From assembly GCA_019057475.1 (NCBI GenBank), contig DXJO01000018.1, positions 32,001 through 96,000 on the forward strand: 64,000 bases of DNA, written 5' to 3'. The position numbers and the translations under genes were made by a program. Position 1 is the first letter of the stretch, and each line of letters starts with the position of its first letter. The DNA is from Candidatus Thorarchaeota archaeon. Its GTDB lineage: Archaea > Asgardarchaeota > Thorarchaeia > Thorarchaeales > Thorarchaeaceae. The notes under the pieces are model-generated. The model worked only from the letters and a program-made list of their open reading frames with translations. It was not told where the DNA came from and searched no databases. Positions 10,942-31,308 of the stretch are shown here, piece by piece.

Positions 10942-10956
10942 CTTCGCATCACACTC

Positions 10957-11307: not shown

Positions 11308-11318
11308 TGTGATTCCTC

Positions 11319-11684
11319 CTATGGTACAAACGTTAGAAACCTGTCACACTCACCTACAATCTCTGCAAGCTCGGTGAGACCTGTGACCTCGACCCCCGGA
11401 GTGTAGTCAGTACCTTCCTGGTCAAATCCTCTGGCAGTTGTGCAGAGGCCACATGCTTGGAAAACAGCCCCAGCATCAGCCAGCTCTTGGAACCTTTCAT
11501 TCATTGGGCGTTCAGGATCAGGTTCCTGGTTGAGCTTGGCATTGTTCACTCCGTCCACAAAAAGGAAGGCTTTCACTTCGTGACCCTTCTCGAGAGCGGC
11601 CTTAGCAATCTCATAGAAGGTTTCGCTATTCTGGTATGTATAAGGGCCGGTGAGCAATAGCATGCCCAGAGTCTTCTTGTTCAA
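11319..11684 (-). CDS. dsrE: DsrE/TusD family sulfurtransferase
   Basis: GPY, FLFVDGVNNA, ACGLCTTARG, GLTELAE. Confidence 0.85.
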   Translation of the reverse strand: MNKKTLGMLLLTGPYTYQNSETFYEIAKAALEKGHEVKAFLFVDGVNNAKLNQEPDPERPMNERFQELADAGAVFQACGLCTTARGFDQEGTDYTPGVEVTGLTELAEIVGECDRFLTFVP

Positions 11685-11775: not shown

Positions 11776-12786
11776 TCAGTTGGCTGCATCAGACACTTGC
11801 GCCTTGAAGCACGCAACTTCACGCCCGTCGCTCATCTTCAAGAGTTCAGGCTCCTTCTGACTGCACTCGTCACCCACAAACGGACATCTTGTATGGAACC
11901 TACAGCCGGATGGAATGCTGATTGGGTTGGGGGTCTCTCCTGTCAAGAGTATCCTGTTGCGTTCTACACCTATTTCAGGGACGGGAACAACGGAAACCAG
12001 TGCCTTTGTGTACTTGTGCATTGGCGAATCAATAATCTGCTTGGTTTCGCCTCTCTCAACTATCTTGCCTAGGTACGCTATCGCGATTCGGTCTGCGAGC
12101 TGTTTCGCTACCGCAAGGTTGTGCGTGATTATAATGATGGATATGTTCTTCTTCGCCCTAAGCTCCAAGAGCAAAGTAAGAATCTGACCGCGCATTGAAA
12201 CGTCCAGCATAGAAACCGGCTCGTCTGCTATTAGCAGATCTGGGTTTAGAACTAATGCGGCCGCGACCGCAACCCGCTGTCTTTGCCCTCCGCTTAGTTC
12301 GTGCGGCAATCGACCGACGAACTCATCTGGAGAATTTAGGCCTACATCCTCAAGAGCTGACCTCACTCGCTCGTCGACTTCGCATTCATCACGGCATATA
12401 TTGTGAATTCTAAGCGGCTCGGCGATAATGTCTTCAACAGTCATGTTATTGCTGAGAGAACCATAGGGATCTTGGAAAATCATTTGCATCCTCGTTCGGT
12501 ACTTCTTGAATTCTGATTCACTCATATCTGAAATCTTGTCACCGTCAAACCAAAGCTCCCCCTCTGTCAACGTTTCCAGTCGCATTATGAGCCTAGCGAT
12601 CGTGGTCTTGCCGCAGCCCGATTCGCCTGCAATGCAGAAGATCTCACCTCTCTTAACTTTCAAGTCTATGCCATCTACAGCACGGATGTATGTGGGCTCA
12701 GTTCTTTTGAAGATAGTTGAGAATAGTCCGCTTCTAACAGTGAACCACTTCTTGATGCCTCGTGCCTCCAATATTATATCTGACAT
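11776..12786 (-). CDS. oppF: Oligopeptide/dipeptide ABC transporter ATPase (OppF/DppF)
   Basis: [26 protein letters not shown]-terminal PSGCRFHTRC; start taken at MSDII (ATG 12786). Confidence 0.92.
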   Translation of the reverse strand: MSDIILEARGIKKWFTVRSGLFSTIFKRTEPTYIRAVDGIDLKVKRGEIFCIAGESGCGKTTIARLIMRLETLTEGELWFDGDKISDMSESEFKKYRTRMQMIFQDPYGSLSNNMTVEDIIAEPLRIHNICRDECEVDERVRSALEDVGLNSPDEFVGRLPHELSGGQRQRVAVAAALVLNPDLLIADEPVSMLDVSMRGQILTLLLELRAKKNISIIIITHNLAVAKQLADRIAIAYLGKIVERGETKQIIDSPMHKYTKALVSVVPVPEIGVERNRILLTGETPNPISIPSGCRFHTRCPFVGDECSQKEPELLKMSDGREVACFKAQVSDAAN

Positions 12787-13757
12787 CAGAACTCGTGCCT
12801 CCTCCAGCAAGCAACGCAGTGGCCATTCTCGCATTCAAGAGGTGGTACTTCCTGTCTACACCTGTCAACAGCGAAATCACACCTGGGATTGAATCTGCAA
12901 CCGCTTGGCGGATTAATGAGGTCCGGTGGATTTCCAGGAATGAAGTCTATCTCCTTATCGACTAGAATACTCGGAAATGATGAGATGAGTTTCTTCGTAT
13001 ACGGATGCTCAGGCATTGTGAAGATAGTATCAGTGCGGCCAGTTTCTACAATACGCCCTGCATACATTATGATGATTCTGTCACAAGTTTCAGCCAGAAC
13101 AGACAGGTCATGAGTAATCAGGAGGACTGATAGATTGGTCCTATCCCTCAACTGGTTAAAAAGGTCGAGAATCTGCGCTTGGACCATAACATCTAAAGCT
13201 GTCGTTGGCTCGTCCGCGATTATGATGGACGGATGGCAGACCAAAGCCAAAGCAATCATCAGGCGTTGCTTCATTCCACCGCTCAATTCATGGGGATATG
13301 AAGTGGCACGTGCAGGGTCGATTCCAACTGATTTGATCAACTCAAGCGAGCGCTCTTTCGCCTCCTGTTCTGTCACATCCTCGTGAATACGCAATGCAGT
13401 GATCATTTGGTCTATAGCCTTGTGGACTGGATTCAGAGCATTCATCGCTCCTTGGAATACCATGGAAATATCACGCCAACGAAGTGCTTCGACCTTTTTT
13501 GTATCATAGTCAAGTATGTTCTCGCCCTTGAATAGGATGACCCCTTCTTCCACCTTGCCCTCTTTGGGCAGCAAATGCATCAATGACAGCGCTGTAGTTG
13601 TCTTCCCGCAACCTGACTCGCCGCTCAGCCCTATGAACTCACCACGATGAATCCTGAAGCTAACATTCTCAGCTGCCTTCACTTTGCCCTGCTTGGTTTC
13701 GTAGGTGATTCGCAGGTTTTTCACCTCGAGGAAAACTTCGCGTTTTGTGTCAGCCAT
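12786..13757 (-). CDS. oppD: Oligopeptide/dipeptide ABC transporter ATPase (OppD/DppD)
   Basis: [35 protein letters not shown]. Confidence 0.92.
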
Positions 13758-13766
13758 GTCCTCGCA

Positions 13767-16523
13767 TCACCGCCTCCTCAATCGGGGGTTGGCAATCTCG
13801 TCCATGGCATATCCAAGCATGGAAACCCCCATCAACAGTAGAACCACCATGATTCCAGGTGGAAAGACCCACCACCAAAGATTCCCAGTCATTGCACCCG
13901 AGCCAAAGGCTTGGTATAACATTGTGCCCCAACTGACCATAGTTGGATCACCCAACCCAAAGAAATCAAGCACGACTTCAGAGAGAATCGCATAGGCTGT
14001 CACAAGAACTGTGTTGGCAACGATGAGCGGCGCTACTGCGGGGAGAATATGCTTAAACATGATGTAGGATTTGCTACCTCCGACCGCTCTTGCTCTCTCG
14101 ATGTAATCCCGCTCCTTAATTGTTAAAACCTGACCCCTTACTATGCGCGCAGTGGAAGGCCAAGAGAATATGCCTATGATAATAATCAACGAATAGACCG
14201 AAGGAGGAAGAATCGCACCAAGAATAATCATAATCACAAGACCAGGTATCACAAAGAAGATGTCGGTGAAACGCATCAAAAGCGAATCAGCAATGCCTCC
14301 ATAGTACCCCGCAAGCAGACCAATCATTCCTCCAATGAACATCGTAATCATTGTTGCGACTAGTCCGATGATGAGTGTGATGCGAACGCCGATGACAAGC
14401 TGACTGAATACATCTCGTCCAAGCTGGTCGGTACCCAAGAGATGGAACCCGGGAAAAGAGGTGGGATTGCCTGTAATTATCCACAATGAGGTCGTCATCA
14501 GAAGAGCAAGGCCCAAAGTCAGCATAGTCAAGCCGATAAGACGCTCCAAGGAGGGTCTCAACGCTGATTTTGTGATTTCTCTCAGTGCAGACCGCAAGTT
14601 GGGTAGTGCTAGAGCAAGACCTATCCCACCAAGCAAGAATGCACCTGCAGTGGCAAGAGAGCTTGCTCTAGCTAGCGAATGCGGAAGAAGGAGGATTGCA
14701 ACGTAAGCAAGAAAGGCTCCAATGAAAGCCCATTGAATTGAAGCAGAAATGTTTGGCCTATTACGATAGCTTGCGTACACCCACACCACGGCGCCTATCA
14801 CAAGGATAGCTAGACTGACATCTAGAAGAGCGGCTTGATCTAATGGTAGGGGTGTTGGGGGCTGTCGTGGTGTCCCTGTCAAATGGGCTGTGGGATCGTA
14901 TGGAGCAAGTATGTCTCCAAATATCGCGAGAGCAGCAAATGCGGAAACTGTTACTGCTCCAACAATGCCCATTTTGTTCCCTAGAATCTGCCTTACCATA
15001 GCGATTGTCTGCACCTGTCGATTCAGGAAGTAGCCATAAAGCCAGCCGGCCAATGATGTTATTGTAAGAAGAGGATGAGCGATGATGGAAGCTGACAACA
15101 TCAGGACATGTAACCAGCCCTCCAGCGATGACACGGGCGGAAACACGCTTGCGCCCACAAAGGTCGTGGCCCAAGATAGTACCCATTCCAGCCCATATGC
15201 GTTGGGCATCGCAAGTGCCACAATCATTACAATTGTGACAAACAGCACATTCAACGTTAGGACTAATTGCGATAGTCGAATAAGCAGCTGCGGCCGATGA
15301 TTCGTCCAGAGGTACGTCAGGTTCCCAGGTGAATAAAGCTTGGCTCTATTCCAAATGAACCTGAGGATATCTTGCCTTCGCACGAATACGAGGATGGCAA
15401 GTGTGCTAATCAGAAATAGTGCAGCATAAGAAGGTGCGAGGAGCAGAATAACAATGTCCAGGCACAGCAGCACTGTGGTTAAGTACGTGAAAGGGCGCAG
15501 AAACCACCCGAAAAACCCTCCCTTCTTCTCATCTGTGAGGGTGAACTCAGTTCCCACTCTGATTCGTGGGTCAAGCCAGTAGTACAGGAAATCAGCAGCA
15601 AGGTTGGCAAAGATCATAACCACAGTGATCACAAAGAATGTTCCCTGCAAAACGGGGTAATCCCTCCAAAGAATGCCGTCCCAGAGCAAACGTCCGATTC
15701 CGGGATATGAGAAAATGACCTCCACTTGAAGTGCACCAGCTACCGTGGCTCCGAGGTTCAGAGCTATGATAGTGGTTACAGGAATCATTGCATTTGGCAC
15801 GGCCTCTTTGTCCAGCTGATCCTTCTCAGTACGTCCTTTCGCTTTCGCTGTAATCATGTAGTCCTCACTAAGCACATCAAGCAGTGCATTTCTCATTATG
15901 AGCGCAAACACGCCAATCAAAGCTATTGTCAGTACACCCCAAGGTAAAATGAGTCGTCTGACGATTTCATAGGTAAAAAGTAAGGGATTACTAACGAAAT
16001 CTATGTTTGGGATAATTGCTGTTATCGGGAACCATCCAAGATTGACTGCGAACAGCATGATGAAGAACATAGAGAGGAAAAACGACGGAATGGAATAGGT
16101 CAGCAATGAGATGATTAGTCCAACGGCATCAGCACGCTCACCCCGTTTCCATGCAGAATGCTTTCCAATGTAGATGCCGATTGCTATGGAGGCAATGGTC
16201 GCAGGTAGAATGAGTAGCAGTGTATTGAGCAAACGGTGAAGTATCAATATTCCAACATCTGTCTGATATCGAAATGAGATACCGAAGTTACCTGTCAGGA
16301 AGTTGACAATGAATAGAAAAAACTGCTCAGGAAGCGGCTTGTCCAAGCCAAACGCTATGATGATTTGCTCCTGCGCAGCTTCAGGGATATTCGGGTTTCT
16401 GGCTAGGAATGTGGCAGGATCTCCCGGAAGCATATGGAAGAAGATGAAGTCGATAGCCAGTGCAATGAATATAGTAACAATGGCTTGTACGACTCTTTTC
16501 GCCAGTGTTCCTCTTAGACCCAA
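13767..16523 (-). CDS. Fused OppB-OppC ABC permease with extra TM segments
   Basis: N-half OppB (LPGDP, FGLDKPL, EDYMITAKAKG, DPRIR); C-half OppC (LLGTDQLGRD, DYIERARAVGG, NPRLR); 918 aa single ORF. Confidence 0.88.
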   Translation of the reverse strand: MGLRGTLAKRVVQAIVTIFIALAIDFIFFHMLPGDPATFLARNPNIPEAAQEQIIIAFGLDKPLPEQFFLFIVNFLTGNFGISFRYQTDVGILILHRLLNTLLLILPATIASIAIGIYIGKHSAWKRGERADAVGLIISLLTYSIPSFFLSMFFIMLFAVNLGWFPITAIIPNIDFVSNPLLFTYEIVRRLILPWGVLTIALIGVFALIMRNALLDVLSEDYMITAKAKGRTEKDQLDKEAVPNAMIPVTTIIALNLGATVAGALQVEVIFSYPGIGRLLWDGILWRDYPVLQGTFFVITVVMIFANLAADFLYYWLDPRIRVGTEFTLTDEKKGGFFGWFLRPFTYLTTVLLCLDIVILLLAPSYAALFLISTLAILVFVRRQDILRFIWNRAKLYSPGNLTYLWTNHRPQLLIRLSQLVLTLNVLFVTIVMIVALAMPNAYGLEWVLSWATTFVGASVFPPVSSLEGWLHVLMLSASIIAHPLLTITSLAGWLYGYFLNRQVQTIAMVRQILGNKMGIVGAVTVSAFAALAIFGDILAPYDPTAHLTGTPRQPPTPLPLDQAALLDVSLAILVIGAVVWVYASYRNRPNISASIQWAFIGAFLAYVAILLLPHSLARASSLATAGAFLLGGIGLALALPNLRSALREITKSALRPSLERLIGLTMLTLGLALLMTTSLWIITGNPTSFPGFHLLGTDQLGRDVFSQLVIGVRITLIIGLVATMITMFIGGMIGLLAGYYGGIADSLLMRFTDIFFVIPGLVIMIILGAILPPSVYSLIIIIGIFSWPSTARIVRGQVLTIKERDYIERARAVGGSKSYIMFKHILPAVAPLIVANTVLVTAYAILSEVVLDFFGLGDPTMVSWGTMLYQAFGSGAMTGNLWWWVFPPGIMVVLLLMGVSMLGYAMDEIANPRLRRR

Positions 16524-16569
16524 AAAACCTCACCTTAAGTCCTGTGTACTACCAGTCTGCTAAAAAGAT

Positions 16570-16606
16570 TGGAAGGAACAGACAGATATTATGCCTGTTC
16601 CATCCA
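16570..16606 (-). terminator. Stem-loop between the SBP gene and the permease gene (possible attenuator or mRNA-stabilising hairpin)
   Basis: TGGAAGGAACAG...CTGTTCCATCCA, 12-bp stem with one mismatch, T-rich on both sides. Confidence 0.45.
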
Positions 16607-16624
16607 TTTTCTTGCTTTTTGATA

Positions 16625-18529
16625 TCAGCCTCTCCGTTTCATGTATACGATGCCTATGATCACGATTACAACCACAGCTATTCCAACGAGGGCAATCATC
16701 TCTATCGGGAACGCGGATGGCAAAAGGACATACACGTCAGCCTCAAGCCAAGACATCCAGTTCCAAATGGAAAAGATTCCTGATTCCCAGTCTGTATGAG
16801 CGAACTCCCATCTGTCGCTTCGATAGATTTCTAGGTCATTGAACTCCACAAGGATACAGACGCTGGCCTCATCATAGACAAGCTGCTGCATCTCATCGAT
16901 CAGGTCCTCACGTTCACTATCGTCAGCGAGCTTTTGCTCTGCATAGATTTCGTCTACGCGTGCAATGGAGAGTCCAGTCGGGTTAATCCAGCTCGGGGTT
17001 GTCATATACTGAGCGATGCTGTTGGGATCTGCTATCTGGGAATAGAACGTGACTGCCAGGTCGAAGTTTCGGCTACCCGCTGCGGTGTCAGTCACGAAGG
17101 TTGTTGTGTCAACTGCCTGAAGGGTTATGCCAAAGCCAGCAGCCTCAAGATCCGCCTCTATCAGTTGAACCATGCTCAGGTCAACCGGCGCGCCTGAAAC
17201 ATACTTCAAAGTAAACTCAAGAGCCTTGGTTGATCCATTGAGATCCTTTTCGTAGACCCCTCCGGTATTCTTAACCCAACCGTCCGCCTCAAGAGTTGCC
17301 ATCGCTTCAGCTGTACCAGCATCAAAGGTCACTAGTGCATTGTTGAACCATTTGAGTGTACTATGAACAACAGAGTCTGCAGGCTGAGCATGGTCCAGAT
17401 AGGCAATTTGAGCAATCTTTGTCTTGTTGATTGCCTGATTGATTGCCTTCTTGACCGAAAACTCACGCAACGCGAATTTGTCAGTCGTATTGCAGTAGTA
17501 CCAATCCTGGTCTATGAGTAGAGCTTCCCATCCAAGGAACGGGTTCTCATTGAGAGTAACTCCCTCAGTAGTTCCTAGAGACTCCAAGAATGGAGCTTCA
17601 GTTTCGCAGAAGTCGATTTCACCAGCCGCAAGAGCTTGTGTCATTGTTTCGATAGAGCTGTAGAACAGCACAGTAATGTTGTCGATGTTAGGGCGTCCCC
17701 ATTGATAGTCCTCATTTGCTTCAAGGAATGCGTACTCTCCGATTACGTACTCGGAAAGCTTGAACATGCCAGTGCCGACTTCTGGTGTGTCAAAGGTCGG
17801 TACAATAATGTTCCATGAGATTCCATCCCAGTTCAGGTAGTCCCAGTAGCCCCACGGGTCATAGCCGGTACCATTCAAACCCCACACGGGGTCGTTCCAT
17901 GTGATGGGGTCCCAGAGGTGCATCGGAAGTATTGGAACGTACGTAAGACCTGTAAGTAAGTACTCCTGGTTGACCTCGACAGGCGTACTATCGTATCGCT
18001 CATTCCAGTAATAGAAAGGAGCGCCAGCCATCCACGAATAGATGCTTGCGTACCCATTCTGCACGAAGTTAAGCACAACAGTATAGTCGTCAGGGCACTT
18101 GATGTTATAGTGATCGATGTGACCTGTTTGAGCTACCCACCAGCCCAACCATGTCCAAGTGAAGAGTGTCCAATTGACATCCGCTGACGTAAATGGAGTT
18201 CCGTCGTGCCATGTGGCATTCTGAACCAAATGCAAAGTCAGTTGAGTACCATTTTCAGCCCATTCCCAGGATTCTGCAAGGCCTCCCGTCACTCCCCAAT
18301 CATCATCCCAGCGCGTTAGCGGGTCATAGATCCAGTTGAAAAATTCCCATGAGGCTATGCTTCCCGCAAGAATTGGGTTCAGGTAGTCGGGCTCACCAAA
18401 CATACCCAGTTTGAATGGCTTTCCTGTTTCTTCTTCTTGCGCAACCACTTGCATCGGCGTATTGGCTAATACGGGTAGAACCATGGCCAGAACAAGAAGT
18501 AACGCGAGAATGTATTTTCGTCTTTTCAC
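16625..18529 (-). CDS. oppA: Family-5 ABC substrate-binding protein (OppA/DppA), C-terminal TM anchor
   Basis: LAESWE, WHDGTPFTSADV, VGTGMFKL; signal peptide after GTG 18529 (VKRRKYILALLL); C-terminal TM. Confidence 0.88.
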   Translation of the reverse strand: MKRRKYILALLLVLAMVLPVLANTPMQVVAQEEETGKPFKLGMFGEPDYLNPILAGSIASWEFFNWIYDPLTRWDDDWGVTGGLAESWEWAENGTQLTLHLVQNATWHDGTPFTSADVNWTLFTWTWLGWWVAQTGHIDHYNIKCPDDYTVVLNFVQNGYASIYSWMAGAPFYYWNERYDSTPVEVNQEYLLTGLTYVPILPMHLWDPITWNDPVWGLNGTGYDPWGYWDYLNWDGISWNIIVPTFDTPEVGTGMFKLSEYVIGEYAFLEANEDYQWGRPNIDNITVLFYSSIETMTQALAAGEIDFCETEAPFLESLGTTEGVTLNENPFLGWEALLIDQDWYYCNTTDKFALREFSVKKAINQAINKTKIAQIAYLDHAQPADSVVHSTLKWFNNALVTFDAGTAEAMATLEADGWVKNTGGVYEKDLNGSTKALEFTLKYVSGAPVDLSMVQLIEADLEAAGFGITLQAVDTTTFVTDTAAGSRNFDLAVTFYSQIADPNSIAQYMTTPSWINPTGLSIARVDEIYAEQKLADDSEREDLIDEMQQLVYDEASVCILVEFNDLEIYRSDRWEFAHTDWESGIFSIWNWMSWLEADVYVLLPSAFPIEMIALVGIAVVVIVIIGIVYMKRRG

Positions 18530-18569
18530 AAATATCACATCCAGTGAAGGACTGGGCTGAAATACACGG

Positions 18570-18616
18570 TGTACAATGATTAAAATCCACCGAACAACAG
18601 TGAACAACCATGAACA
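18570..18616 (-). promoter_or_regulatory. Four-box operator/promoter of the opp operon
   Basis: On the - strand: TGTTCA (18616), TGTTCA (18606), TGTTCG (18596), TTTTAAT TATA-like, TGTACA (18575); offsets 0/10/20/41. Confidence 0.75.
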
Positions 18617-18626
18617 TGGCTAGGCA

Positions 18627-19601
18627 TCATCGCTTCTTTACGCGGTACACAGCTAATGCCACGATGACAAGCAATGTAGCCGCAATGGCAACTGACTGTT
18701 CAAATGACAATCCCAACGTTGGAGGTGGAGTGGTTGATGATTCGAAACCCTCCACTAGCCACAGGGAGACCTTCATCATCATATCCCATTCGGAGCCCTG
18801 GTCATCAAACTCATTCTCCCAAATGCTGTTATCTCTCTGAGAGTCCTCCTCCCACTCTGGGTGAGGTCCAGAAAGGAACACGCGGCCAGAGTCGTATTCA
18901 AATGCGACCATTGCAGACTGGTTATTGACCGAGAATGTCGCCAGCGTGTGAATCCCATTTTGGCTCTCGCTTTCGAAGTAGGGTCCACCGTAGTACATGA
19001 CTGAATGCGTGGAGGGCTCTCCAGAGAAGTCGATGATATCCGAACTATGATTCACACTTATCTCGCACATATCGTAGTTTGGCCAGCTAGCAATCTCCTC
19101 GATTGAACCCACTCCCGTACCATCGAAGAGGTCAAGTGAATAATCATGGGTTGTTCCTTCCCAGGTGATCTTATCACAGGCAAAGTAAGCTCCAGCACAC
19201 ACACCAAAGAATGCGCCTCCCTCCCTCACAAACCGTCTAATCTCCGCAATTCCAATAGAGCCCAATTCATTGTTGTAGGTGACCGCCCAACCGCCCGGGA
19301 TGACTACCATGTCGTAGTTCGACAGTTTTCCGTCAATGATGTCTGAGGCATAGAGCAGGTCTGTACTTGCATTCATCCACTGAAACATGAATGTCAACGC
19401 GTTTCTACTACTCTGACTTGATGATTGGTCACCAAAGTAGACAGCCACGCTTACCCCTGAAAGGTCGATCCGATTAGCTGGTGTTTGGGCTTGAGTATTA
19501 GTGGCTAGAGTAAGAATGAACATTACTACAACTGCAAGTGCGACAAATGAGCGATAAGTTCTTGTGATGGCTTCAAGCTTCATTGAGAACCGACCGGACA
19601 T
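18627..19601 (-). CDS. BPL_N / class-I GATase-like domain protein, secreted and C-terminally anchored
   Basis: IPGG, GVCAGAYFAC, YYGGPYF, SGPHPE (Cys-His-Glu triad); signal peptide and C-terminal TM. Confidence 0.8.
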   Translation of the reverse strand: MSGRFSMKLEAITRTYRSFVALAVVVMFILTLATNTQAQTPANRIDLSGVSVAVYFGDQSSSQSSRNALTFMFQWMNASTDLLYASDIIDGKLSNYDMVVIPGGWAVTYNNELGSIGIAEIRRFVREGGAFFGVCAGAYFACDKITWEGTTHDYSLDLFDGTGVGSIEEIASWPNYDMCEISVNHSSDIIDFSGEPSTHSVMYYGGPYFESESQNGIHTLATFSVNNQSAMVAFEYDSGRVFLSGPHPEWEEDSQRDNSIWENEFDDQGSEWDMMMKVSLWLVEGFESSTTPPPTLGLSFEQSVAIAATLLVIVALAVYRVKKR

Positions 19602-19660
19602 ATTGATTGCAGTCGCGTACTAATCTAGCCTTATTGCTCTTTAGCAATGCGCAGCACTCT

Positions 19661-19707
19661 TGTTCAATCGTGAACACGGATGTTAGCACTCTTCATATCA
19701 TTGTTCA
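19661..19707 (+). promoter_or_regulatory. Four-box operator/promoter of the aminotransferase operon
   Basis: TGTTCA 19661, TGAACA 19671, TGTTAG 19681, TGTTCA 19702 (0/10/20/41). Confidence 0.78.
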
Positions 19708-19788
19708 TATCAAATACAGTACAGCCTGATATCAGTACTTCTTCAAACGGGTCTGGATGAAAAGAACCCCTATAGGAGTTGTCAAAGA

Positions 19789-21084: not shown

Positions 21085-21111
21085 GGATCACCAAGACTTG
21101 GAGGCTTTGAG

Positions 21112-22884: not shown

Positions 22885-22902
22885 GAAAATGGAGGAATCA
22901 GA

Positions 22903-23793
22903 GTGGCAAGAAAACTGGGTGTGGCTGGTCTTCAGTTGAAGAAAGACTTTAGCGACGCAGAGTCCAATATCATCAAATTCGAAACTATGACACGAACAGC
23001 AAAGGCGTCATATCCATGGGTGGATCTAATTTTCACTGGTGAACTATACCTTCAACAGTATGGAACCAAAGATTGGAAGGATTTCGCTGAGCCCATCCCA
23101 AATACTTTGACTGATCGACTATCGCGTCTTGCTAAGAGAACTCATTGCTGGTTGGTTCCTGGCTCCTTTCTCGAGCGAGACGGTTCGCGAATCTTCAATA
23201 CCTCGATTGCGTTCAATCCAGACGGGGAGATAGTAGTGAAGTACAGGAAGATTTTCCCATGGGCTCCACACGAAGATACGGATCAAGGTACCGAGTTCAT
23301 CACATTCGACATCCCCGGAATAGCAAGAGTAGGCATGACCATTTGCTACGATTTATGGTTCCCAGAGTTGTTCAGGACACTTGCATGGATGGGATCTGAA
23401 GTCATTCTGCAGCCGTCTGCGACATACACCCCTGATAGGGACGCCGAGTTGATTCTAACGCCAGCTCAGGCCATCATGCACCAATGCTATATTCTCAATG
23501 TGAACACAATCAGTCCTCACGGAGGAGGACGGTCGATGTTTGCAGATCCAGAAGGGTATGTTATCCAGAAGACTGGCACTCACGAGGAAATGATGATTGA
23601 GGTCATTGATATAGACAAGGTTGCATGGATCCGACAACATGGTTCCTTCGCACTCAACCCGGTTTGGAAGAGCTTCAGGGACTCGCCCTTGAACGGGAAA
23701 TTCCCGCCGTATGAGAATCTACAAGACGGCGAGATACTCAAGACACTCGGGGAAATGAAGCTTCAGAAGAGTATCAGAGATTGGGACGTTTAG
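22903..23793 (+). CDS. Carbon-nitrogen hydrolase (nitrilase superfamily)
   Basis: Glu-Lys-Cys triad: FTGEL, YRKIFPW, ICYDLWFPE. Confidence 0.9.
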   Translation: MARKLGVAGLQLKKDFSDAESNIIKFETMTRTAKASYPWVDLIFTGELYLQQYGTKDWKDFAEPIPNTLTDRLSRLAKRTHCWLVPGSFLERDGSRIFNTSIAFNPDGEIVVKYRKIFPWAPHEDTDQGTEFITFDIPGIARVGMTICYDLWFPELFRTLAWMGSEVILQPSATYTPDRDAELILTPAQAIMHQCYILNVNTISPHGGGRSMFADPEGYVIQKTGTHEEMMIEVIDIDKVAWIRQHGSFALNPVWKSFRDSPLNGKFPPYENLQDGEILKTLGEMKLQKSIRDWDV

Positions 23794-23811
23794 ACCCGGG
23801 AGACAGCTAAC

Positions 23812-25101
23812 ATGTCAGATAAGGGTGAAGTAGTTAAGGAGTGGATACGAGAGCATAGCGACTCGCTAATCACTCTGACTCAAGAACTAGTTCGCATCCC
23901 CAGCATCACCGGACACGAGTTTAATGTTCAGGAATACATCCTGAAGCGCTTAGATCGCCTAGGTCTCGAGCCATGGATGGTTCTGCCAGATGTCGATGTT
24001 TTAAGAAAGGACGCCGACTTCTTTGAAACATCGTCTTTCGTCAAGTATGGATACGAGAACCGACCCAACGTTGCCGGCATCCTTAAGGGGTCCGGCAATG
24101 GCCGGTCGATATGTCTTAGCGGGCACGTTGACGTTGTATCCCCAGAGCCCGTTGGCCAGTGGTCCTATGACCCTTGGTCTGGTGAAGTTGACGACGGGAT
24201 GATCTATGGTCGAGGGGCAGGCGATATGAAGGCAGGTATCGCCGCCATGATTATCGCATTGGAGGCAATCAGGAGGGCCGACGTCAAGCTAAAGGGCGAT
24301 GTTCATGTGGAAACGACAATTGAAGAAGAGGATGGTGGAGTAGGCGGCAATCTCTACATGAGACTGACGCAACCACGAACGGATGGTGCGATAAACCCCG
24401 AACCAACCAGCCTACAGATTGGCATGGCTAGTGCAGGAGTCATGTACTTTAGGGTAATTTCCTTCGGCGTCCCAGCCCATGCTGCCACTGCGCACTTTGG
24501 AGTCAACGCAATACACAAGATGCTTCCCCTCATTGAGGCGCTTCGAACTCTAAATGAAAGGAGACAACAGAGAATCTCCTATGCTTATGCCGAAGCTATG
24601 AGTCCTAGGATGAAAGGGCGAGTGACCACAATCAACATAGGAGTTGTTAGGGCGGGCGATTGGCCCTCAACAGTTCCAGGGACATGTGAGATAGAATGCA
24701 GAATAGGCTGGCCGCCCGGGGAAACCCGGGAGGAAGTGATGAGTGAAGTTGAAGAGTGCATAACAAACGCATATCAGAATGACTCATGGCTCCGCGACCA
24801 TCCTCCCAAGGTGGAGTGGTTCGGATGGCGGGCAAGGCCCCACGAGCAAGACGTCCAAGATCCGTTTGTCCTTTGCATAAGAAACCAAATTGCAAAGGCG
24901 ACTAAGAAAAGCCCAGTCCTGTACGGAGGTTCAGCAGGCCTTGATACGCGATTTTTCGTGAACCATGGCACTCCGGCTGTGACATTCGGACCTGCCGCGC
25001 AAAGAATTCATTCGTTTGATGAATGCGTGAGCATTGAGTCAATTGTGACGACAGCTGAAGTGATAGCTGCAACGATAATGGACTGGTGTGGTGTGGCCTA
25101 A
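23812..25101 (+). CDS. M20A/ArgE-DapE family amidohydrolase
   Basis: LSGHVDVV, GRGAGDMKAG, EEE, PEPT, IHSFDE. Confidence 0.9.
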   Translation: MSDKGEVVKEWIREHSDSLITLTQELVRIPSITGHEFNVQEYILKRLDRLGLEPWMVLPDVDVLRKDADFFETSSFVKYGYENRPNVAGILKGSGNGRSICLSGHVDVVSPEPVGQWSYDPWSGEVDDGMIYGRGAGDMKAGIAAMIIALEAIRRADVKLKGDVHVETTIEEEDGGVGGNLYMRLTQPRTDGAINPEPTSLQIGMASAGVMYFRVISFGVPAHAATAHFGVNAIHKMLPLIEALRTLNERRQQRISYAYAEAMSPRMKGRVTTINIGVVRAGDWPSTVPGTCEIECRIGWPPGETREEVMSEVEECITNAYQNDSWLRDHPPKVEWFGWRARPHEQDVQDPFVLCIRNQIAKATKKSPVLYGGSAGLDTRFFVNHGTPAVTFGPAAQRIHSFDECVSIESIVTTAEVIAATIMDWCGVA

Positions 25102-25152
25102 TTTCGCTAATCGCAGAAACACCTGTTCCTGGAAACTGCAGACTTTTCGCTC

Positions 25153-26928
25153 TTACATTCCAACTATCTTCGACATGCCTTTGGAGATTCCACTGAGGAG
25201 GTCCGAAAGGTTGGATAGTTCCTTCTCTATCTGTTGGAACACTCTGGATCTTTCTTGTTCCAGCTTCGCAAGGGGCTCATGAATCCTAATCCAGTTGTAG
25301 GGATTCTCCTTCTGCACTTCAAGTTTGGCGACAGAGTGATGCCCTATGTTCGCAATTGGCATGCCACGCAGAGCGCTAATTGCTCGGCTTAGGTCAACAT
25401 AATCGGCAATCATTTCCAAGCGAGAAAGATAGTCTACATCGTCAGGAGCCTTTTGCCGCCAGATCCAACCGATTGTTCTGTTAAGCGAGTTTGCAGTGGA
25501 AAGCAGGAACTCATTGATTGCCGCAATTCCGTTTGAGTCACTTTTCTCACTCACATCCTTTAGGGATTTCAAGAACTTCTGTTTCATTCCCGCAATCCGG
25601 TCCAGCTTCTTTAGGAGTGGTGCTAAGTCAAATGGACTATCCGTTCTTCTGCTATGTTCAAACAGAATTCCACGGAATCGCTCCAGAAGCGGGAAGATGT
25701 CAATTGGCAGCAAATCTGCGTTTGCTAGGCTGAGCAATGCCTTCCTAATGAACTCAGCAAAGAAGTGGACTGCTTGATAGTCCAAGTTCTCAGGACTGTC
25801 CTCTTGCGTGTGATACAACGGACTCGGGAATGACACACCGTACACTGAAGGGACACCGGAGATTTCAAAGAACCAGTGGTCACTACCATACGCTGGGGGA
25901 TCGTAGTAGTCTACTCGCGAAGCAATCTTTGAGCCGACTTTCAGATTCCTAACAAAATCAAGGAGTCCAGTCGTAGCAGCAATGTAGTTCTTAGCAGGAG
26001 TTGGATAGCCCACTGAATCCAACGATAAGAAGGAAGCGGCTTTCTTAACTATATCTTGGTTTTCCCTGACGAATGCTTTTGACCCGTTGCACCAGTAGTA
26101 GAAGTCCATAGAGCCGCTCTCCTCAGCCCCAAAGAATAGGAACCTAACCGTTCTCTTGAGCTCTCCTTCGTTTTGCCTATACTCATGAAGGAGCCTTGCG
26201 GTTTCGAGAACTATCGCCGCAGAAGCTGAATTGTCAGCGGCTCCTTGGAACCATGCGTCATAGTGGGCACCAATCAGAATCTCGTGGTCTGATGAGCCGT
26301 TGCCCGCCACTGTGACCATAAGATTGCGCGACCGTGCTTTCGCGGACCAGTCAACCTCTGTACGCAACTCAACGACAACATCATCCGACTCCAAAAGGTC
26401 GAAGAGAAACTCGCCATCTTCCTTGGATATGTTAATCATTGGTATCTTCAGAAGACTGCCTGAAGATATGACAACAACCTTGTGCAGATTGCCGTCATCA
26501 GGAGAGGAAACAATCAAGCCTTTGGCATCCTGATCTAAGGCATGGAAGTAGGCTCTCATCGGTCCAAGGTAAAGCTCTGTTCCCCACCTAACTAGACCAA
26601 TCGTGTCGCTATCTTTCTCTAGGATTCCGGAGTTGATTTGGTGAAAGGGCGCAAGTCGTCCCTTTATTTCTGCACCTTGTGAGTGGGGGAACACAACTGC
26701 CTTGATGTCCTTGCGAACCGGCTTGATGACCTTGAGTTGGCAATGTGTAGGTTGCCACCGATGAACCTCGAACTTACTCTCCTTGATTTTGGTGATTCCG
26801 AAGCTGGCAAGTCGGCTTTTGATGTATTCCGCAGCCTTCGCTTCACTCTCGGTCCCTGCAATCTTGTTTCCTATGGCACTAAGACCTTCAACGGTTTTCC
26901 TAATTTCGTCGATAGACGTCGGTTCCAA
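25153..26928 (-). CDS. M28-family metallo-hydrolase with PA-like domain (paralogue B)
   Basis: Same motifs as paralogue A; TTG start at 26928 after GGAGG aligns with the start of paralogue A. Confidence 0.85.
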   Translation of the reverse strand: MEPTSIDEIRKTVEGLSAIGNKIAGTESEAKAAEYIKSRLASFGITKIKESKFEVHRWQPTHCQLKVIKPVRKDIKAVVFPHSQGAEIKGRLAPFHQINSGILEKDSDTIGLVRWGTELYLGPMRAYFHALDQDAKGLIVSSPDDGNLHKVVVISSGSLLKIPMINISKEDGEFLFDLLESDDVVVELRTEVDWSAKARSRNLMVTVAGNGSSDHEILIGAHYDAWFQGAADNSASAAIVLETARLLHEYRQNEGELKRTVRFLFFGAEESGSMDFYYWCNGSKAFVRENQDIVKKAASFLSLDSVGYPTPAKNYIAATTGLLDFVRNLKVGSKIASRVDYYDPPAYGSDHWFFEISGVPSVYGVSFPSPLYHTQEDSPENLDYQAVHFFAEFIRKALLSLANADLLPIDIFPLLERFRGILFEHSRRTDSPFDLAPLLKKLDRIAGMKQKFLKSLKDVSEKSDSNGIAAINEFLLSTANSLNRTIGWIWRQKAPDDVDYLSRLEMIADYVDLSRAISALRGMPIANIGHHSVAKLEVQKENPYNWIRIHEPLAKLEQERSRVFQQIEKELSNLSDLLSGISKGMSKIVGM

Positions 26929-27047
26929 AGGTTCTCCTCCTCGCTCGTGGCGAGTCCAACTAGTGATGCGAGCTCTTCCAAAGCTAAACAGCATGGGATC
27001 TCACATGACACTTCACGATTAGCGCACTATGCTGTACTACATGCTTA

Positions 27048-27094
27048 TGAACAACGATATGAAATATGCTAACATCCGTGTTCATGATTGTACA
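27048..27094 (-). promoter_or_regulatory. Four-box operator/promoter of M28 paralogue B
   Basis: On the - strand: TGTACA (27094), TGAACA (27084), TGTTAG (27074), TGTTCA (27053); offsets 0/10/20/41. Confidence 0.78.
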
Positions 27095-27112
27095 AGAGCG
27101 TACGCTTCAAGT

Positions 27113-27159
27113 TGTTCAAGTCTGTTCAAGAGTGTTAGGTTTCTTTTTCTACATGTTCA
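27113..27159 (+). promoter_or_regulatory. Four-box operator/promoter of the corrinoid protein-mtmB operon
   Basis: TGTTCA 27113, TGTTCA 27123, TGTTAG 27133, TGTTCA 27154 (0/10/20/41). Confidence 0.78.
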
Positions 27160-27200
27160 CATCATCGTGACCATTGATGCGATTCTGTGAGTAGACACGT

Positions 27201-27848
27201 ATGAATGACTCCGTCAATAAGCTAAAGGAAGCTGTTATCAAAGGTGACTACAAAAACACCCCTGACCTCGCCAGAGAAGCTCTCGAGGCAGGTGTATCCC
27301 CTATTGAGGTTCTTAAGAAAGGGATTACAGACGCGGCTACGATTGTAGGGGATCAGTTTGAGCGGATGGAGATATACCTCCCGGAGCTGATGATGTCAGG
27401 AAAAGCAATGATGGCAGGCATTGATGTCATTCTACCCAGGATTTCGTCTAGCGATGATGTAATCAAGGGCAGGGTCGTTGTTGGAACTGCGCTAGGAGAT
27501 GTACACGAGATTGGCAAGAACATTCTCAAGGTTCTGCTAATCGCTAGTGGTTTCGAGGTAAGCGACCTGGGAGTGAATGTTCCCACTTCCAAGTTTATTC
27601 AGGAAGCAGAGAGAATCAACGCAGACATAATTGCAATATCTGCCCTGATGACTTCCACACTGGGAGGACAGAAAGATGTCATCGATTATCTGCGAGAAAC
27701 AGGGAAACGTGACAAATACATCATAATGGTGGGTGGAGGTCCGACCAACAAGCAGTGGGCAGACACGATAGGTGCCGATGGCTTTGCAGAATCAGCTCCT
27801 GATGCAGTCAGGGAGGCAATTAGGTTGATCGAAGAACGGAGGGGATAG
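27201..27848 (+). CDS. Methyltransferase cognate corrinoid protein (MtmC/MtbC/MttC family)
   Basis: B12-binding DVHEIG (DxHxxG), SALMTST, MVGGGP, IGADG. Confidence 0.93.
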   Translation: MNDSVNKLKEAVIKGDYKNTPDLAREALEAGVSPIEVLKKGITDAATIVGDQFERMEIYLPELMMSGKAMMAGIDVILPRISSSDDVIKGRVVVGTALGDVHEIGKNILKVLLIASGFEVSDLGVNVPTSKFIQEAERINADIIAISALMTSTLGGQKDVIDYLRETGKRDKYIIMVGGGPTNKQWADTIGADGFAESAPDAVREAIRLIEERRG

Positions 27849-27850
27849 AT

Positions 27851-29230
27851 ATGCTGCCTGTCATAGAGATAACAAAGCGGTGTCTTGAAGGAACACCATG
27901 CCTTGAGAGTGACTTTGACCTAGAGATTTTCGCACCTAGAGTCAGAGAGCTTGTCAAGGAATATGGCATAGCATATGACACTGATGTCATTGTGCCCTCA
28001 GACAACGGATTGGCGGACTCGGTGTTCAAGGCTGCCGTGGAATTGGTTGTTGATGTGGGGATGTTCTGCAAGGATACAGAGCGGATTGTCAAGTTTGAAG
28101 AGCAGGAGGTCCGGAAAGCAATCAAGACCGCTCAACGAGAAACCACCTTCGGTGAAGGCGAGGAACGGAGAACACTGCGCTCACGAACTCCAGAATCCAA
28201 GGACCACCCGTGGATATTCGCGGGAGCAGGAGGGGTGACAGTATCAAATGAAAACATCTTCATGCGACTTGTTGAAAACTATGCCAGAATGATACCGAAA
28301 GCCAATGCCATCACAACACCCTGTCTGCTTGAGGTGGATGGAATGAGCATTCGGGCGCGTTCGCCTCTTGAGATTGTGGGTTCAATTCGAACTGTGATGC
28401 TTGGCCGCGAAGCATTGCGAAGGGCGGAACGGCCAGGACTTCCCATTATGAATGGAATAAGCACTGCTGAATCGGCAGTTGCTCTTATCTCCGGATTGCA
28501 TCCTGATTTTGGGCTCAGAAAGTCAGACGGGTATATGATCTCCCTGTTAGCTGAGCTGAAGACAGACTTTGACCTGCTTAATCGTGCTGCACTGCTTCAA
28601 TCCATTGATGTCCCAATAGCCGGGATCTACGGGCCCATATTCGGTGGTTTCGCAGGTGGGGCTGAAGGGACTGCAATAGCATCGGTCGCGTTTCACATCC
28701 TAGCCATGCTCGCATATCGTGCTTCTTGGACCCTTTGTTTCCCCATCCATATCAAACACATTTCAAGCTCATCTCCTGAACTCATCTGGACCGCTAGTGT
28801 GTACTCACAAGCGGTTTCCAGAAACACTGAACTACCTGCGTTGTACTACCCCTACACCGCCGCAGGACCATGCACGGACATGGTTCTTCGGGAATTTGCC
28901 GCCCAGTTCATTGCGGCCATATCTTCAGGAGTTTCAATAGAAACAGGAGGCGTGGCGAAAGGAAAGTATTTCGACTATCTCACGCCGATTGAACCAATGT
29001 TCGGTTCAGAGGTTGCGTACGCAGCAGCAGGTCTAAAACGATCTGATGCAGATGATATGGTCAAAGAGCTACTATCCAGGTTCATAGAAAAAATCCCGAA
29101 CCCGCCGAAAGGGAGCAGGTTTCAAGAGTGCTGTGACCAGACAACAGGTAAGCCTTCAAAGAAGTGTTTCAGCATATACAAGAAGGTGAGGGATGAGGTC
29201 TCGGACCTCGGAATCGAGTTCTCCAGCTAG
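27851..29230 (+). CDS. mtmB: Monomethylamine:corrinoid methyltransferase (MtmB) homologue, pyrrolysine-free
   Basis: Collinear with Methanosarcina MtmB as recalled (DTERIVKF, RPG, ELKTD, PIFGGFAGG, AGPCT, AKG, FQEC, DLG); no in-frame TAG. Confidence 0.88.
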   Translation: MLPVIEITKRCLEGTPCLESDFDLEIFAPRVRELVKEYGIAYDTDVIVPSDNGLADSVFKAAVELVVDVGMFCKDTERIVKFEEQEVRKAIKTAQRETTFGEGEERRTLRSRTPESKDHPWIFAGAGGVTVSNENIFMRLVENYARMIPKANAITTPCLLEVDGMSIRARSPLEIVGSIRTVMLGREALRRAERPGLPIMNGISTAESAVALISGLHPDFGLRKSDGYMISLLAELKTDFDLLNRAALLQSIDVPIAGIYGPIFGGFAGGAEGTAIASVAFHILAMLAYRASWTLCFPIHIKHISSSSPELIWTASVYSQAVSRNTELPALYYPYTAAGPCTDMVLREFAAQFIAAISSGVSIETGGVAKGKYFDYLTPIEPMFGSEVAYAAAGLKRSDADDMVKELLSRFIEKIPNPPKGSRFQECCDQTTGKPSKKCFSIYKKVRDEVSDLGIEFSS

Positions 29231-29270
29231 CTACTATGAATTTCTTGACATGCACCGTGTAGACAGAGAT

Positions 29271-30413
29271 TTAATGAGAATGGCCTCGACCCGCTCCGTG
29301 CTGCTCACCGAAGTACAGAACAGCTGTGGCTTCGCCTTCTTCTCGGCTCATCTCCTCTATTCCGTCAAGACTTAGGAGACTCCGTATTAGCTTAATCGCG
29401 AGATCCTTTGTGACTGGGGTTCTAGATCTCACCTGAACCCGAACAAGGTCTCCATCCGCCGTGACATTGCATTTCTCAAGCAGCCCCGAAGATGTGACGT
29501 TCAGAGCTGACCTCCTGACCCGATCCAGAATAGTCATAGATACATCAGAACCAACCACATCTGGCTGAGGGCCAAAGTCCTTTATGCTAACTAGAGTTCT
29601 CTCTCCGATGGCATCATTGATTGTGTGAGTGGCCAACCACTCCAAGAGCGGCGGACAGAGAGTGGCACGTCCACTCTGACCGGCTTGCATGAGGAACCTC
29701 TCACGTCGGCTTTTCCAGGCTTCGAAGATTCTCCTGTCGCGGTTTCCTTTTAGAAACCGAAACTCGCGATCATCGACCCACCTTAAACTAACCTTATTCT
29801 CAGCAATAACTTCAACATCGACGGTATAGCCTGCTTCATCCCAACTTGCTAGGAGCAGGAGTAGAAGGGTTTCAGGCTGATTTCGCATCATCTTGATGGT
29901 AGCCATAACCGTTCTGCGATCCGAATAATCTTCAACAGACCTGAGAACTCCCATCGTTTCTAGCAACTGCACGTGGAGTACAAATGCCTCGTATGTATTT
30001 TCCCAAATTTCCTGAGGGACAGTGCCGAGTCTGCGCAGTAGCTTTGTCTGTTGAGTGCCAAGCTTGTCAATTCGATCCTTAAATTCGCTGGCTGAGAACC
30101 TTGTCTGTCCGAAATCTGACAGTGCATCAAAGAATGCCGACGCAGCAAGGCCCATGTCCGCAGCATCAACTAAGGAGGCCAAGAGCTTTGAGATAGCCTT
30201 GAATTCACAATCATCACAATCTGGTTGGTTTCGTCGAATGCTGTAATAGCCGATTGCTTCCTCAATGACTTCGTTAATGCGCCCAGTTTCGCCGCTTAGG
30301 GATTTTAGCAGATCTCTAGTTTGCGCTGACACAGTTGTATGGATGTGAACGCGAGGACCACCTTTCACATAACCACGAGGTGCTTCGTCCTGTGTGTTTG
30401 AAGTTTTTTTCAT
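29271..30413 (-). CDS. Putative transcription regulator: N-terminal ribbon-helix-helix, CxxC, C-terminal putative ligand-binding domains
   Basis: RVHIHTTVSAQTRDLLKSLSGETGRINEVIEEAIGYY fits an RHH strand-helix-turn-helix; CDDC; ATG at 30413. Confidence 0.6.
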   Translation of the reverse strand: MKKTSNTQDEAPRGYVKGGPRVHIHTTVSAQTRDLLKSLSGETGRINEVIEEAIGYYSIRRNQPDCDDCEFKAISKLLASLVDAADMGLAASAFFDALSDFGQTRFSASEFKDRIDKLGTQQTKLLRRLGTVPQEIWENTYEAFVLHVQLLETMGVLRSVEDYSDRRTVMATIKMMRNQPETLLLLLLASWDEAGYTVDVEVIAENKVSLRWVDDREFRFLKGNRDRRIFEAWKSRRERFLMQAGQSGRATLCPPLLEWLATHTINDAIGERTLVSIKDFGPQPDVVGSDVSMTILDRVRRSALNVTSSGLLEKCNVTADGDLVRVQVRSRTPVTKDLAIKLIRSLLSLDGIEEMSREEGEATAVLYFGEQHGAGRGHSH

Positions 30414-30469
30414 GAACACACTCACCGATTCATGTTCAAGATGGCTCCTCTTAATGTGGCATGTGAACA
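30413..30469 (-). promoter_or_regulatory. TGTTCA/TGAACA boxes at the regulator's own 5' end (possible autoregulation)
   Basis: Boxes at 30464-30469, 30433-30438 and 30413-30418. Confidence 0.55.
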
Positions 30470-31303: not shown

Positions 31304-31308
31304 CGTAT

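Follow-up and report, generated by a model that had tools for sequence, protein, structure and literature searches.

A candidate substrate-inducible regulon that joins an Opp-type importer and hydrolases to a pyrrolysine-free MtmB homologue in a Thorarchaeota archaeon

We analysed a stretch of 64,000 nucleotides (hereafter the window; contig DXJO01000018.1 of assembly GCA_019057475.1) from a Candidatus Thorarchaeota archaeon of sediment. An island of ~18.7 kb in it (window positions 11776-30469) encodes an oligopeptide-type (Opp) importer, several hydrolases, a corrinoid protein and a homologue of the monomethylamine methyltransferase MtmB without pyrrolysine (Pyl). With slightly better than even confidence, we read it as a substrate-inducible catabolic regulon on an accessory island, whose core handles one imported amide-linked (peptide-like) compound with an N-methyl group. 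This reading is based on a single operator design and on a core conserved in 15 Asgard genomes, from which the island probably processes one imported methylated compound. Every enzyme and transporter family named here by the initial annotation, which was made from the DNA letters, was recovered by Pfam. The initial annotation had also proposed a pathway of import, hydrolysis, transamination and corrinoid-dependent demethylation. Import, amide hydrolysis and corrinoid transfer are syntenic in the 15 Asgard genomes, with conserved boxes, but transamination and the nitrilase fall outside the conserved core. The proposed pathway is partly supported by these comparisons, in that import, hydrolysis and corrinoid methyl transfer make up a conserved unit with shared operators. 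What we infer is a compound common to hydrolases and methyltransferase, the direction in which the methyl group flows, the identity of the regulator, its repressor mode and the substrate.

The promoters of oppA, the aminotransferase operon, the M28b gene and the corrinoid protein gene share one arrangement, TGTWCA-N4-TGWWCA-N4-TGTTMG-N5-(T-rich 10-mer)-TGTWCA, oriented to the gene. The oppA promoter (18570-18621, minus strand) has boxes at offsets 0, 10 and 20, then TTTTAATCAT, then a TGTACA box. The promoter/operator of the aminotransferase operon (19657-19709, plus strand) reads TGTTCA-N4-TGAACA-N4-TGTTAG-N5-TTCATATCAT-TGTTCA and lies in the region divergent from the BPL_N gene. That of the corrinoid protein and MtmB (27113-27159, plus strand) reads TGTTCA-N4-TGTTCA-N4-TGTTAG-N5-TTTTTCTACA-TGTTCA, and that of M28b (27046-27098, minus strand; T-rich 10-mer TTCATATCGT) is a 53-nt inverted copy of 19657-19709 with 89% identity, 7.3 kb away. 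The composite pattern TGTWCA-N4-TGWWCA-N25-TGTWCA was matched four times in the 3.34-Mb assembly (both strands), all four at these promoters, and not once in five shuffled genomes; no further regulon member was found by this pattern elsewhere in the genome. The shared operator design, which the initial annotation had noted for these four transcription units, is real and unique to the island.

Three further boxes (30413-30469, minus strand; at 30413, 30433 and 30464) lie over and upstream of the start codon of a gene for a 380-aa orphan protein, with a spacing that differs from the other four promoters. Their position over the start of this gene suggests autoregulation. Fourteen of the 64 TGTTCA/TGAACA hexamers of the window are packed into ~500 nt of promoter DNA, and three of the 11 clusters of at least three hexamers in the whole genome are in the island. 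The remaining clusters differ in spacing or belong to a 63-nt tandem repeat on contigs C4 and C27. This repeat (C4:7353-7520 and C27:2-87; period of ~63 nt), at or near contig ends, carries three TGTTCA per unit, 11 nt apart. Three plus-strand TGTTCA at window positions 41261-41317, with spacings of 19 and 37 nt, are off the island geometry and may be due to chance. The two 53-nt promoter copies are 89% identical although the M28 proteins encoded behind them are only 50% identical; as inverted repeats, they could allow the intervening segment to invert or to undergo gene conversion.

The species genomes of GTDB were scanned, and 79 loci were returned. Fifteen of them are Asgard-type loci from species-level genomes (Thor-, Hermod- and 'Promethearchaeota' metagenome-assembled genomes), with MtmB proteins 70-75% identical to that of the island. 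Their layout, as far as the contigs reach, is M28(-) / BPL_N-oppA-oppBC-oppD-oppF-corrinoid protein-MtmB(+) / 380-aa gene(-) / M20(+) or deacetylase-SDR (short-chain dehydrogenase/reductase). The corrinoid protein and MtmB genes follow oppF on the same strand, ~90-100 nt away, in 14 of the 15 genomes. The 380-aa gene is present in all 15 loci, always adjacent to MtmB (in L012 it is cut at the contig end), and BPL_N, M28 and M20 are present wherever the contig extends far enough. Box clusters were found at the equivalent promoters in the 15 loci (M28/BPL_N, oppA, oppBC, corrinoid protein and regulator/M20), including the box pairs upstream of oppA, and the same three-box array precedes the orthologues of the 380-aa gene in 12 relatives. 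In a 13-locus alignment of the corrinoid protein promoter (TGTTCA-N4-TGTWCA-N4-TGTTRG-N5-CTTTTC-N4-TGTTCA), the box bases and TTTT are invariant and the flanks have diverged, a phylogenetic footprint. To our knowledge, this operator/regulator pair is among the few archaeal regulons that can be defined from sequence with footprints, and an early one for Asgard archaea.

Conservation of the cluster across genomes, put forward as a check in the initial annotation, was found in part: the core is linked in the 15 Asgard genomes, but was not found in 18 genomes of the same family, and no Opp importer accompanies the distant homologues. These distant MtmB homologues (42-64% identical; Bathyarchaeia, Thermoplasmata and Chloroflexota) keep at most the corrinoid protein beside MtmB. 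None of the 18 same-family genomes, six of which belong to the same genus (52-92% complete), yielded MtmB or the 380-aa gene, and four of the 18 contain the BPL_N gene (31-47% identity). Among 30 relatives, only MtmB paralogues of 31-35% identity, in two other families, were detected. We read the island as accessory and patchy within Thorarchaeia, through transfer or loss. No orthologue of the aminotransferase or the carbon-nitrogen (CN) hydrolase was found beside the MtmB orthologues; in two loci, a 35%-identical aminotransferase is encoded several kb away. A true orthologue of the CN hydrolase was present in one of the 30 relatives, the same-family genome G017. Relatives also keep an M28 gene divergent from BPL_N, and the aminotransferase and the amidase look like local additions between an ancestral M28 promoter and an M28 gene.

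The MtmB-family gene (27851-29230, plus strand), a predicted substrate:corrinoid methyltransferase (MT1), is an uninterrupted open reading frame (ORF) of 459 codons and the only PF05369 gene in the genome. Its product matches PF05369 with 321 bits (cut-off 25) over profile positions 3-450 of 450, and MtmB1 of Methanosarcina barkeri with 225 bits (residues 10-457 aligned). In a residue-by-residue alignment, Pyl202 of M. barkeri MtmB1 falls on M200/N201 in RPGLPIMNG, and there is no in-frame UAG. Glu205, Glu229 and Glu259 of the M. barkeri protein, which we take to be the acidic residues that define the methylamine site around Pyl, align to S204, M229 and I259. Across 14 homologues from Asgard archaea, Bathyarchaeia, Thermoplasmata and Chloroflexota, N201 did not vary and M200 hardly did, with the PIMN motif conserved, and no PylS above the cut-off was found in the genome. 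A Pyl-type monomethylamine methyltransferase is very unlikely on the basis of these alignments. The corrinoid protein gene (27201-27848, plus strand; Pfam B12-binding_2 and B12-binding) ends two nucleotides before MtmB and its DVHEIG motif fits DxHxxG. The protein scored 203 bits against TIGR02370 (cut-off 215), and it is adjacent to the MtmB homologue in 53 of 76 loci.

MtmB homologues without Pyl are widespread among the uncultured archaea of sediments, with 326 confirmed matches in a single scan of the species genomes in GTDB. The first function for any of them was reported in 2026 for MtqB of Methanococcoides methylutens Q3c, a tetramethylammonium/choline:corrinoid methyltransferase whose pocket is rich in sulfur and aromatic residues, for quaternary amines (Kashyap et al. 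2026, PMC13044021). The function of the remaining ones, including those of Asgard archaea, is stated as unknown in the same work (PMC13044021). In the island protein both Pyl and the acidic site are lost, which, with the precedent of MtqB, argues by analogy for an N-methyl donor that carries a permanent charge or is pre-activated in some other way.

The gene neighbours of the wider MtmB clade were also compared. In 11 Thermoplasmata loci (L057, L060, L062-L065, L068, L070, L071, L073 and L076), a homologue of DDAH-like dimethylargininases ends ~70-380 nt upstream of MtmB on the same strand (mostly ~70-75 nt, and 168 and 377 nt in two of them), and in a twelfth locus it is 2.8 kb away. Most of these loci have no adjacent corrinoid protein, and the DDAH-like protein scores 182 bits against the NCBIfam dimethylargininase model, below its cut-off of 340. 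The DDAH-like neighbour suggests that this MtmB clade is connected with methyl-arginine-type chemistry. MttB-like genes are found in 21 loci of the wider clade. A Chloroflexota locus (L087:7328-14178; JBHOZI010000003.1) encodes, in this order, a corrinoid protein, MtmB, an acylating aldehyde dehydrogenase, a class-III aminotransferase and a diaminopropionate ammonia-lyase; the dehydrogenase is SauS/EutE-like (570 bits vs. a cut-off of 600). Lysine catabolism was considered for the Chloroflexota neighbours and rejected, as the dehydrogenase is of the acylating SauS/EutE type and not a piperideine-6-carboxylate (P6C) dehydrogenase, and the Sacchrp_dh neighbours show no more than a weak match to carboxynorspermidine synthase.

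The Opp/Dpp-type importer of the island is complete at the level of Pfam domains (a family-5 solute-binding protein, two BPD_transp_1 domains and two oligo_HPY ATPases), and its genes lie on the minus strand. They are oppA (16625-18529; SBP_bac_5), a fused oppB-oppC permease gene (13767-16523; 918 aa, two BPD_transp_1 domains, BPD_transp_1_N and OppC_N), oppD (12786-13757; ABC_tran and oligo_HPY) and oppF (11776-12834; ABC_tran and a C-terminal oligo_HPY domain). The oppBC fusion is also found in relatives (~906-910 aa), orthologues of oppD are 65-75% identical, and those of oppF (68-72% identical) stand immediately upstream of the corrinoid protein gene. The start of oppA is probably the GTG at 18529 and not position 18607 as in the ORF list, which makes the operator boxes non-coding. 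OppA has a signal peptide and a C-terminal membrane anchor. Its matches to solved structures are weak (NikA, AppA, CtaP and CntA).

In NCBIfam and the Protein Data Bank (PDB), the binding protein is best matched by nickel-binding proteins such as NikA and CntA, as would be expected if the Opp-like system were a Nik/Cnt-type nickel/cobalt (metallophore) importer serving the cobamide-dependent methyltransferase, with the peptidases processing the chelator. However, these matches are weak (123 bits vs. a cut-off of 393; E ~1e-20) and no better than those to the peptide-binding AppA and Opp4A. Metal import would also leave two M28 enzymes, the M20 deacylase and the extracellular Cys-His-Glu hydrolase unexplained under the same operator, and no metallophore synthesis genes were seen among the Pfam calls of the island. 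We consider a metal importer very improbable.

A gene absent from the initial annotation, immediately upstream of oppA, encodes a BPL_N/GATase1-like protein of 324 aa (18627-19601, minus strand; Pfam BPL_N) that also has a signal peptide and a C-terminal membrane anchor. Its motifs place Cys135, His247 and Glu249 as a candidate triad, and the nucleophile elbow GVCAGAY and GPHPEWE are invariant in seven orthologues. The AlphaFold2 (AF2) model matched GATase1 folds at Foldseek E values of 1e-9 to 1e-7, with a probability of 1.0 and E 3e-9 to 5e-7 for Pdx2, GuaA, PabA, HisH and ThuA-like chains. From its motifs and model, the protein is best interpreted as a predicted extracellular amide hydrolase of the Cys-His-Glu type whose action would precede that of OppA.

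Signal peptide and anchor are both missing from the M28 and M20 enzymes, which are predicted to be cytoplasmic. M28a (21112-22884, plus strand) and M28b (25153-26994, minus strand) both match Pfam Peptidase_M28. The nearest solved structures to M28b are an Aneurinibacillus aminopeptidase, which prefers Arg, Lys and Leu, and YwaD. The M20 protein (23812-25101, plus strand; Pfam M20 and M20_dimer) is an ArgE/DapE-family deacylase by NCBIfam TIGR01910, above its cut-off, with a putative acetylornithine deacetylase and DapE as nearest solved structures; its orthologues are 61-64% identical and adjoin the 380-aa gene in relatives. The two accessory genes are those of a class-III pyridoxal-phosphate enzyme resembling GABA and acetylornithine aminotransferases (19789-21084, plus strand; Pfam Aminotran_3), structurally nearest to GabT and archaeal class-III racemases, and of the CN hydrolase (22903-23793, plus strand; Pfam CN_hydrolase), closest to the omega-amidase Nit2 (best PDB match mouse Nit2, 2w1v, E 4e-30). 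No NCBIfam equivalog cut-off was reached by the hydrolases or the aminotransferase, and M20 passes only the generic ArgE/DapE subfamily model.

The initial annotation had placed a ribbon-helix-helix (RHH)-like regulator beside the transcription units. The gene in question (29271-30413, minus strand) is always adjacent in the Asgard loci and has its own boxes, and its product is likely to be the regulator of the island, a candidate role that fits its constant adjacency, its restriction to the islands, its own boxes, the phasing of the repeats by one helical turn and the boxes flanking a TATA-like element. The ORF list extends the gene to 30470; its start appears to be the ATG at 30413, giving 380 aa like the orthologues and probably leaving the boxes non-coding. 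No match was found in Pfam or NCBIfam, and the N-terminal 61 aa of five orthologues gave no Pfam match even at E values up to 10. The family comprises 38 proteins, all annotated as hypothetical and all from Thor-/Promethearchaeota. The orthologues share RVH(L/I)HTT(I/V)S, then two helices joined by a G-x-T/S-G turn, then CxxC. In the AF2 monomer, residues 1-66 have pLDDT values of 31-49, with helices placed at 30-43 and 46-62. Residues ~84-220 align to Bet3/TRAPP (Z 7.3, 127 residues), H-NOX (Z 5.9-6.8, ~128 residues) and the V4R-type sensor of DmpR (Z 5.2, 138 residues); the fold matches of this middle domain are Z 5-7.6 overall, and values of Z <8 are common for unrelated folds. Foldseek against the PDB gave weak matches (E 0.025-0.05), the top ones to de novo designs, and the C-terminal domain is ferredoxin-like in the model. 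The CxxC pair (residues 66 and 69) is invariant in 13 of 13 orthologues and could be a metal or redox site at a dimer interface.

The initial annotation had noted the absence of a second methyltransferase (MT2) and of a corrinoid activase. This holds for the window, and no MtrH or RACo homologues are present on the contig of the island, but the genome encodes both on another contig, C40. The operon there (104.9-108.2 kb; locus L085:6896-10160) consists of MtrH, RACo and a corrinoid protein, without a substrate methyltransferase, and is divergent from a gene for a 460-aa 4Fe-4S protein. The C40 MtrH (PF02007) and RACo (PF14574) are 63% and 54% identical, respectively, to those behind MtmB in CP070761, compared to 30-36% for the paralogues. 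In CP070761 (L002/L016) the order is corrinoid protein, MtmB, MtrH, RACo and 380-aa gene, with the opp operon alongside. The C40 operon is likely, by this homology, to be the MT2/activase partner of the orphan MT1 of the island. MT1, corrinoid protein, MT2 and activase are all encoded in the genome, as are the one-carbon (C1) enzymes Mch, MTHFR and FTHFS, and the methyl group could plausibly enter pterin C1 metabolism. Four URO-D genes are present, one of them directly behind a corrinoid-protein paralogue. At C29:115498-117133, such a paralogue (42% identical to that of the island) is followed by an MtaA/MtbA-like URO-D gene, a second corrinoid methyl-transfer module. At C24:29770-33252, the MTHFR gene has two MtrH paralogues as direct neighbours, with 30-36% identity to the MtmB-linked MtrH.

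Several observations speak against a single methylated compound shared by all parts of the island. The hydrolases and the transporter belong to generic peptide-handling families, none of which reaches an NCBIfam equivalog. Contig C12 of G017 (L101 and L103) carries deacetylase-SDR / M20 ... CN hydrolase-aminotransferase / BPL_N-oppA-(2.3 kb)-oppBC-oppD-oppF, with 2.8 kb between M20 and the CN hydrolase; this import/hydrolysis set is without MtmB, corrinoid protein, 380-aa gene and TGTTCA boxes, and the import/hydrolysis module can therefore exist alone. The Bathyarchaeia, Thermoplasmata and Chloroflexota homologues share the pocket motif without Opp, so their substrate need not come from peptides. 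TGTTCA boxes are missing from the C40 MtrH-RACo operon, which is thus not part of the island's regulon in this genome. The RHH-like N-terminus has no profile match and is modelled at low confidence, with middle-domain fold matches of only Z 5-8. Finally, no acetyl-CoA synthase beta subunit (CdhC) was detected in this 96%-complete genome, and an acetogenic sink for the methyl group is not evident.

The generic families (Opp, M28, M20 and GATase1), the peptide module kept without MtmB in G017 and the distant homologues with a PIMN pocket and no Opp would suit two unrelated functions under one regulator. Ordinary peptide uptake would then be co-regulated or co-inherited with a methyltransferase that uses a free small quaternary or methylated amine entering the cell otherwise. 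MtqB, the sole characterised non-Pyl MtmB, does act on free tetramethylammonium and choline (PMC13044021). On the other hand, the corrinoid protein and MtmB stand behind oppF in 14 of 15 Asgard genomes with the same operator array at every unit, and no other amine transporter was found in the island by Pfam. Within this genome the array is confined to the island; its regulator is therefore no global nutrient regulator. Two separate functions appear rather unlikely to us.

The missing CdhC, and with it the lack of an obvious acetogenic sink, also bears on the direction of the reaction. Corrinoid methyl transfers are reversible in principle, and the MtmB homologue could use the methyl group of the corrinoid protein to N-methylate an amine, giving for example a methylated osmolyte or a modified peptide. 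However, all characterised MtxB-family enzymes demethylate their substrates (PMC13044021), the module sits among import and hydrolytic genes and not among biosynthetic or export genes, and the linkage with MtrH and RACo in L002 is the standard catabolic layout. A biosynthetic direction is hardly probable at all.

In the favoured reading, a catabolic regulon for one imported methylated compound, the membrane-anchored GATase1-type Cys-His-Glu hydrolase would trim the compound outside the cell, and the anchored family-5 binding protein with OppBC, OppD and OppF would import it. The cytoplasmic M28 aminopeptidases and the ArgE/DapE-type M20 deacylase would release the methylated amine, whose methyl group the pyrrolysine-free MtmB homologue would move to the Co(I) of the adjacent corrinoid protein. 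From there an MtrH-type MT2 would hand it on to a pterin C1 carrier, with RACo reactivating corrinoid that has become oxidised. In this genome, the added aminotransferase and Nit2-like amidase, behind the copy of the M28 promoter, may degrade the carbon skeleton further. The 380-aa protein would bind as RHH-type dimers to the TGTTCA boxes, phased by 10 bp on both sides of a T-rich TATA-like element, at its own promoter as well, and would release the promoters once its sensor domain binds the substrate or a product.

Methylated basic amino acids (methyl-lysine or methyl-arginine) from imported peptides are our first guess for the substrate, based on the amine-catabolic neighbours of the wider clade, the peptide importer, the Arg/Lys/Leu-preferring relative of the aminopeptidase and the ArgE/DapE-type deacylase; it is a tentative guess and may well be wrong. 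Worked out in full, the MtmB homologue would be a methyl-amino-acid:corrinoid methyltransferase, Opp would import peptides of detrital, largely eukaryotic or archaeal, protein, and M28 and M20 would free N-methylated lysine or arginine or N-terminally methylated residues. The methyl group would pass to cobamide and then to pterin C1 metabolism, under a new RHH-plus-V4R-like family of one-component regulators. We regard this full scheme as unlikely, but, if true, it would provide the first pathway by which methyl groups are recovered from post-translationally methylated proteins, and a carbon and reductant source beyond current models of sediment carbon cycling. Protein degradation is a lifestyle generally predicted for Asgard archaea, and a methylated peptide residue as donor would link it to methylotrophy in them. 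The island ties one non-Pyl MtmB clade to an importer, hydrolases and a dedicated candidate sensor-regulator with a defined operator, and offers three independent handles on the substrate: the OppA ligand, the inducer of the regulator and the methyl donor of MtmB.

At the edges of the island, an SDR gene (30548-31363) and a polysaccharide-deacetylase-family gene (31309-32133), both on the minus strand and identified by Pfam, are possible peripheral members. The pair adjoins the 380-aa gene in loci L006, L013 and L015, and M20 in G017. On the other side, three consecutive DsrE/DsrF/DsrH-like genes (10642-11684, minus strand) lie beside oppF, outside the conserved island.

Among the closest characterised systems is MtqB/MtqC, which shares with the island an MtmB-family TIM-barrel without pyrrolysine, a gene position beside the cognate corrinoid protein, and hydrophobic and sulfur residues in place of the methylamine-binding acidic site. 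By contrast, the host of the island is a non-methanogen, the predicted MT2 is of the MtrH type (pterin) and not MtbA/MtqA (coenzyme M), and the genes form part of a regulon of Opp importer and peptidases that has its own candidate regulator. The pocket motif is Met-Asn here and a conserved Met-Cys in the MtqB homologues, a comparison made from the published description (PMC13044021). MtmB1/MtmC of M. barkeri (PDB 1NTH and 1L2Q) is similar in full-length homology and in the adjacent DxHxxG corrinoid protein; it differs in that the island MtmB is without UAG/Pyl, the three Glu residues are Ser, Met and Ile, and no PylS was found in the genome. The non-Pyl MttB-superfamily systems (MtgB for glycine betaine, MtcB for carnitine, MtpB for proline betaine and MtyB for gamma-butyrobetaine) show the same four-part logic of MT1, corrinoid protein, MT2 and activase (RamA/RACo). 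They feed methyl groups to a pterin carrier in non-methanogens, and in them the loss of Pyl correlates with a change of substrate, but the island MT1 belongs to PF05369 and not to PF06253. Non-Pyl MttB systems are usually linked to betaine-type transporters and not to an Opp importer with peptidases.

The beta-strand-like RVHLHTTIS, helix, G-x-T-G turn and second helix at the N-terminus of the 380-aa protein resemble RHH repressors (CopG, MetJ, Arc, omega and NikR), which act on phased tandem repeats, and the island operator consists of short repeats approximately one helical turn apart. However, the 380-aa protein is much larger, with a CxxC pair and two extra alpha/beta domains, and is found only in Asgard islands. 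Opp/Dpp importers of protein-degrading sediment archaea share the family-5 binding protein with an archaeal C-terminal anchor, the fused BC permease, two oligo_HPY ATPases, M28 and M20, whereas the island importer is linked, and predicted to be co-regulated, with a corrinoid methyltransferase and is preceded by a putative extracellular GATase1-type hydrolase. In the literature searched, there was no description of a combination of Opp importer, peptidases, exo-hydrolase and corrinoid methyltransferase, nor of an Opp-MtmB cluster in Asgard archaea. The logic of MT1, corrinoid protein, MT2 and RACo was already known from these systems; new is the coupling of MtmB-type methyl transfer to an Opp importer, an exo-hydrolase, peptidases and a dedicated candidate regulator with its operator.

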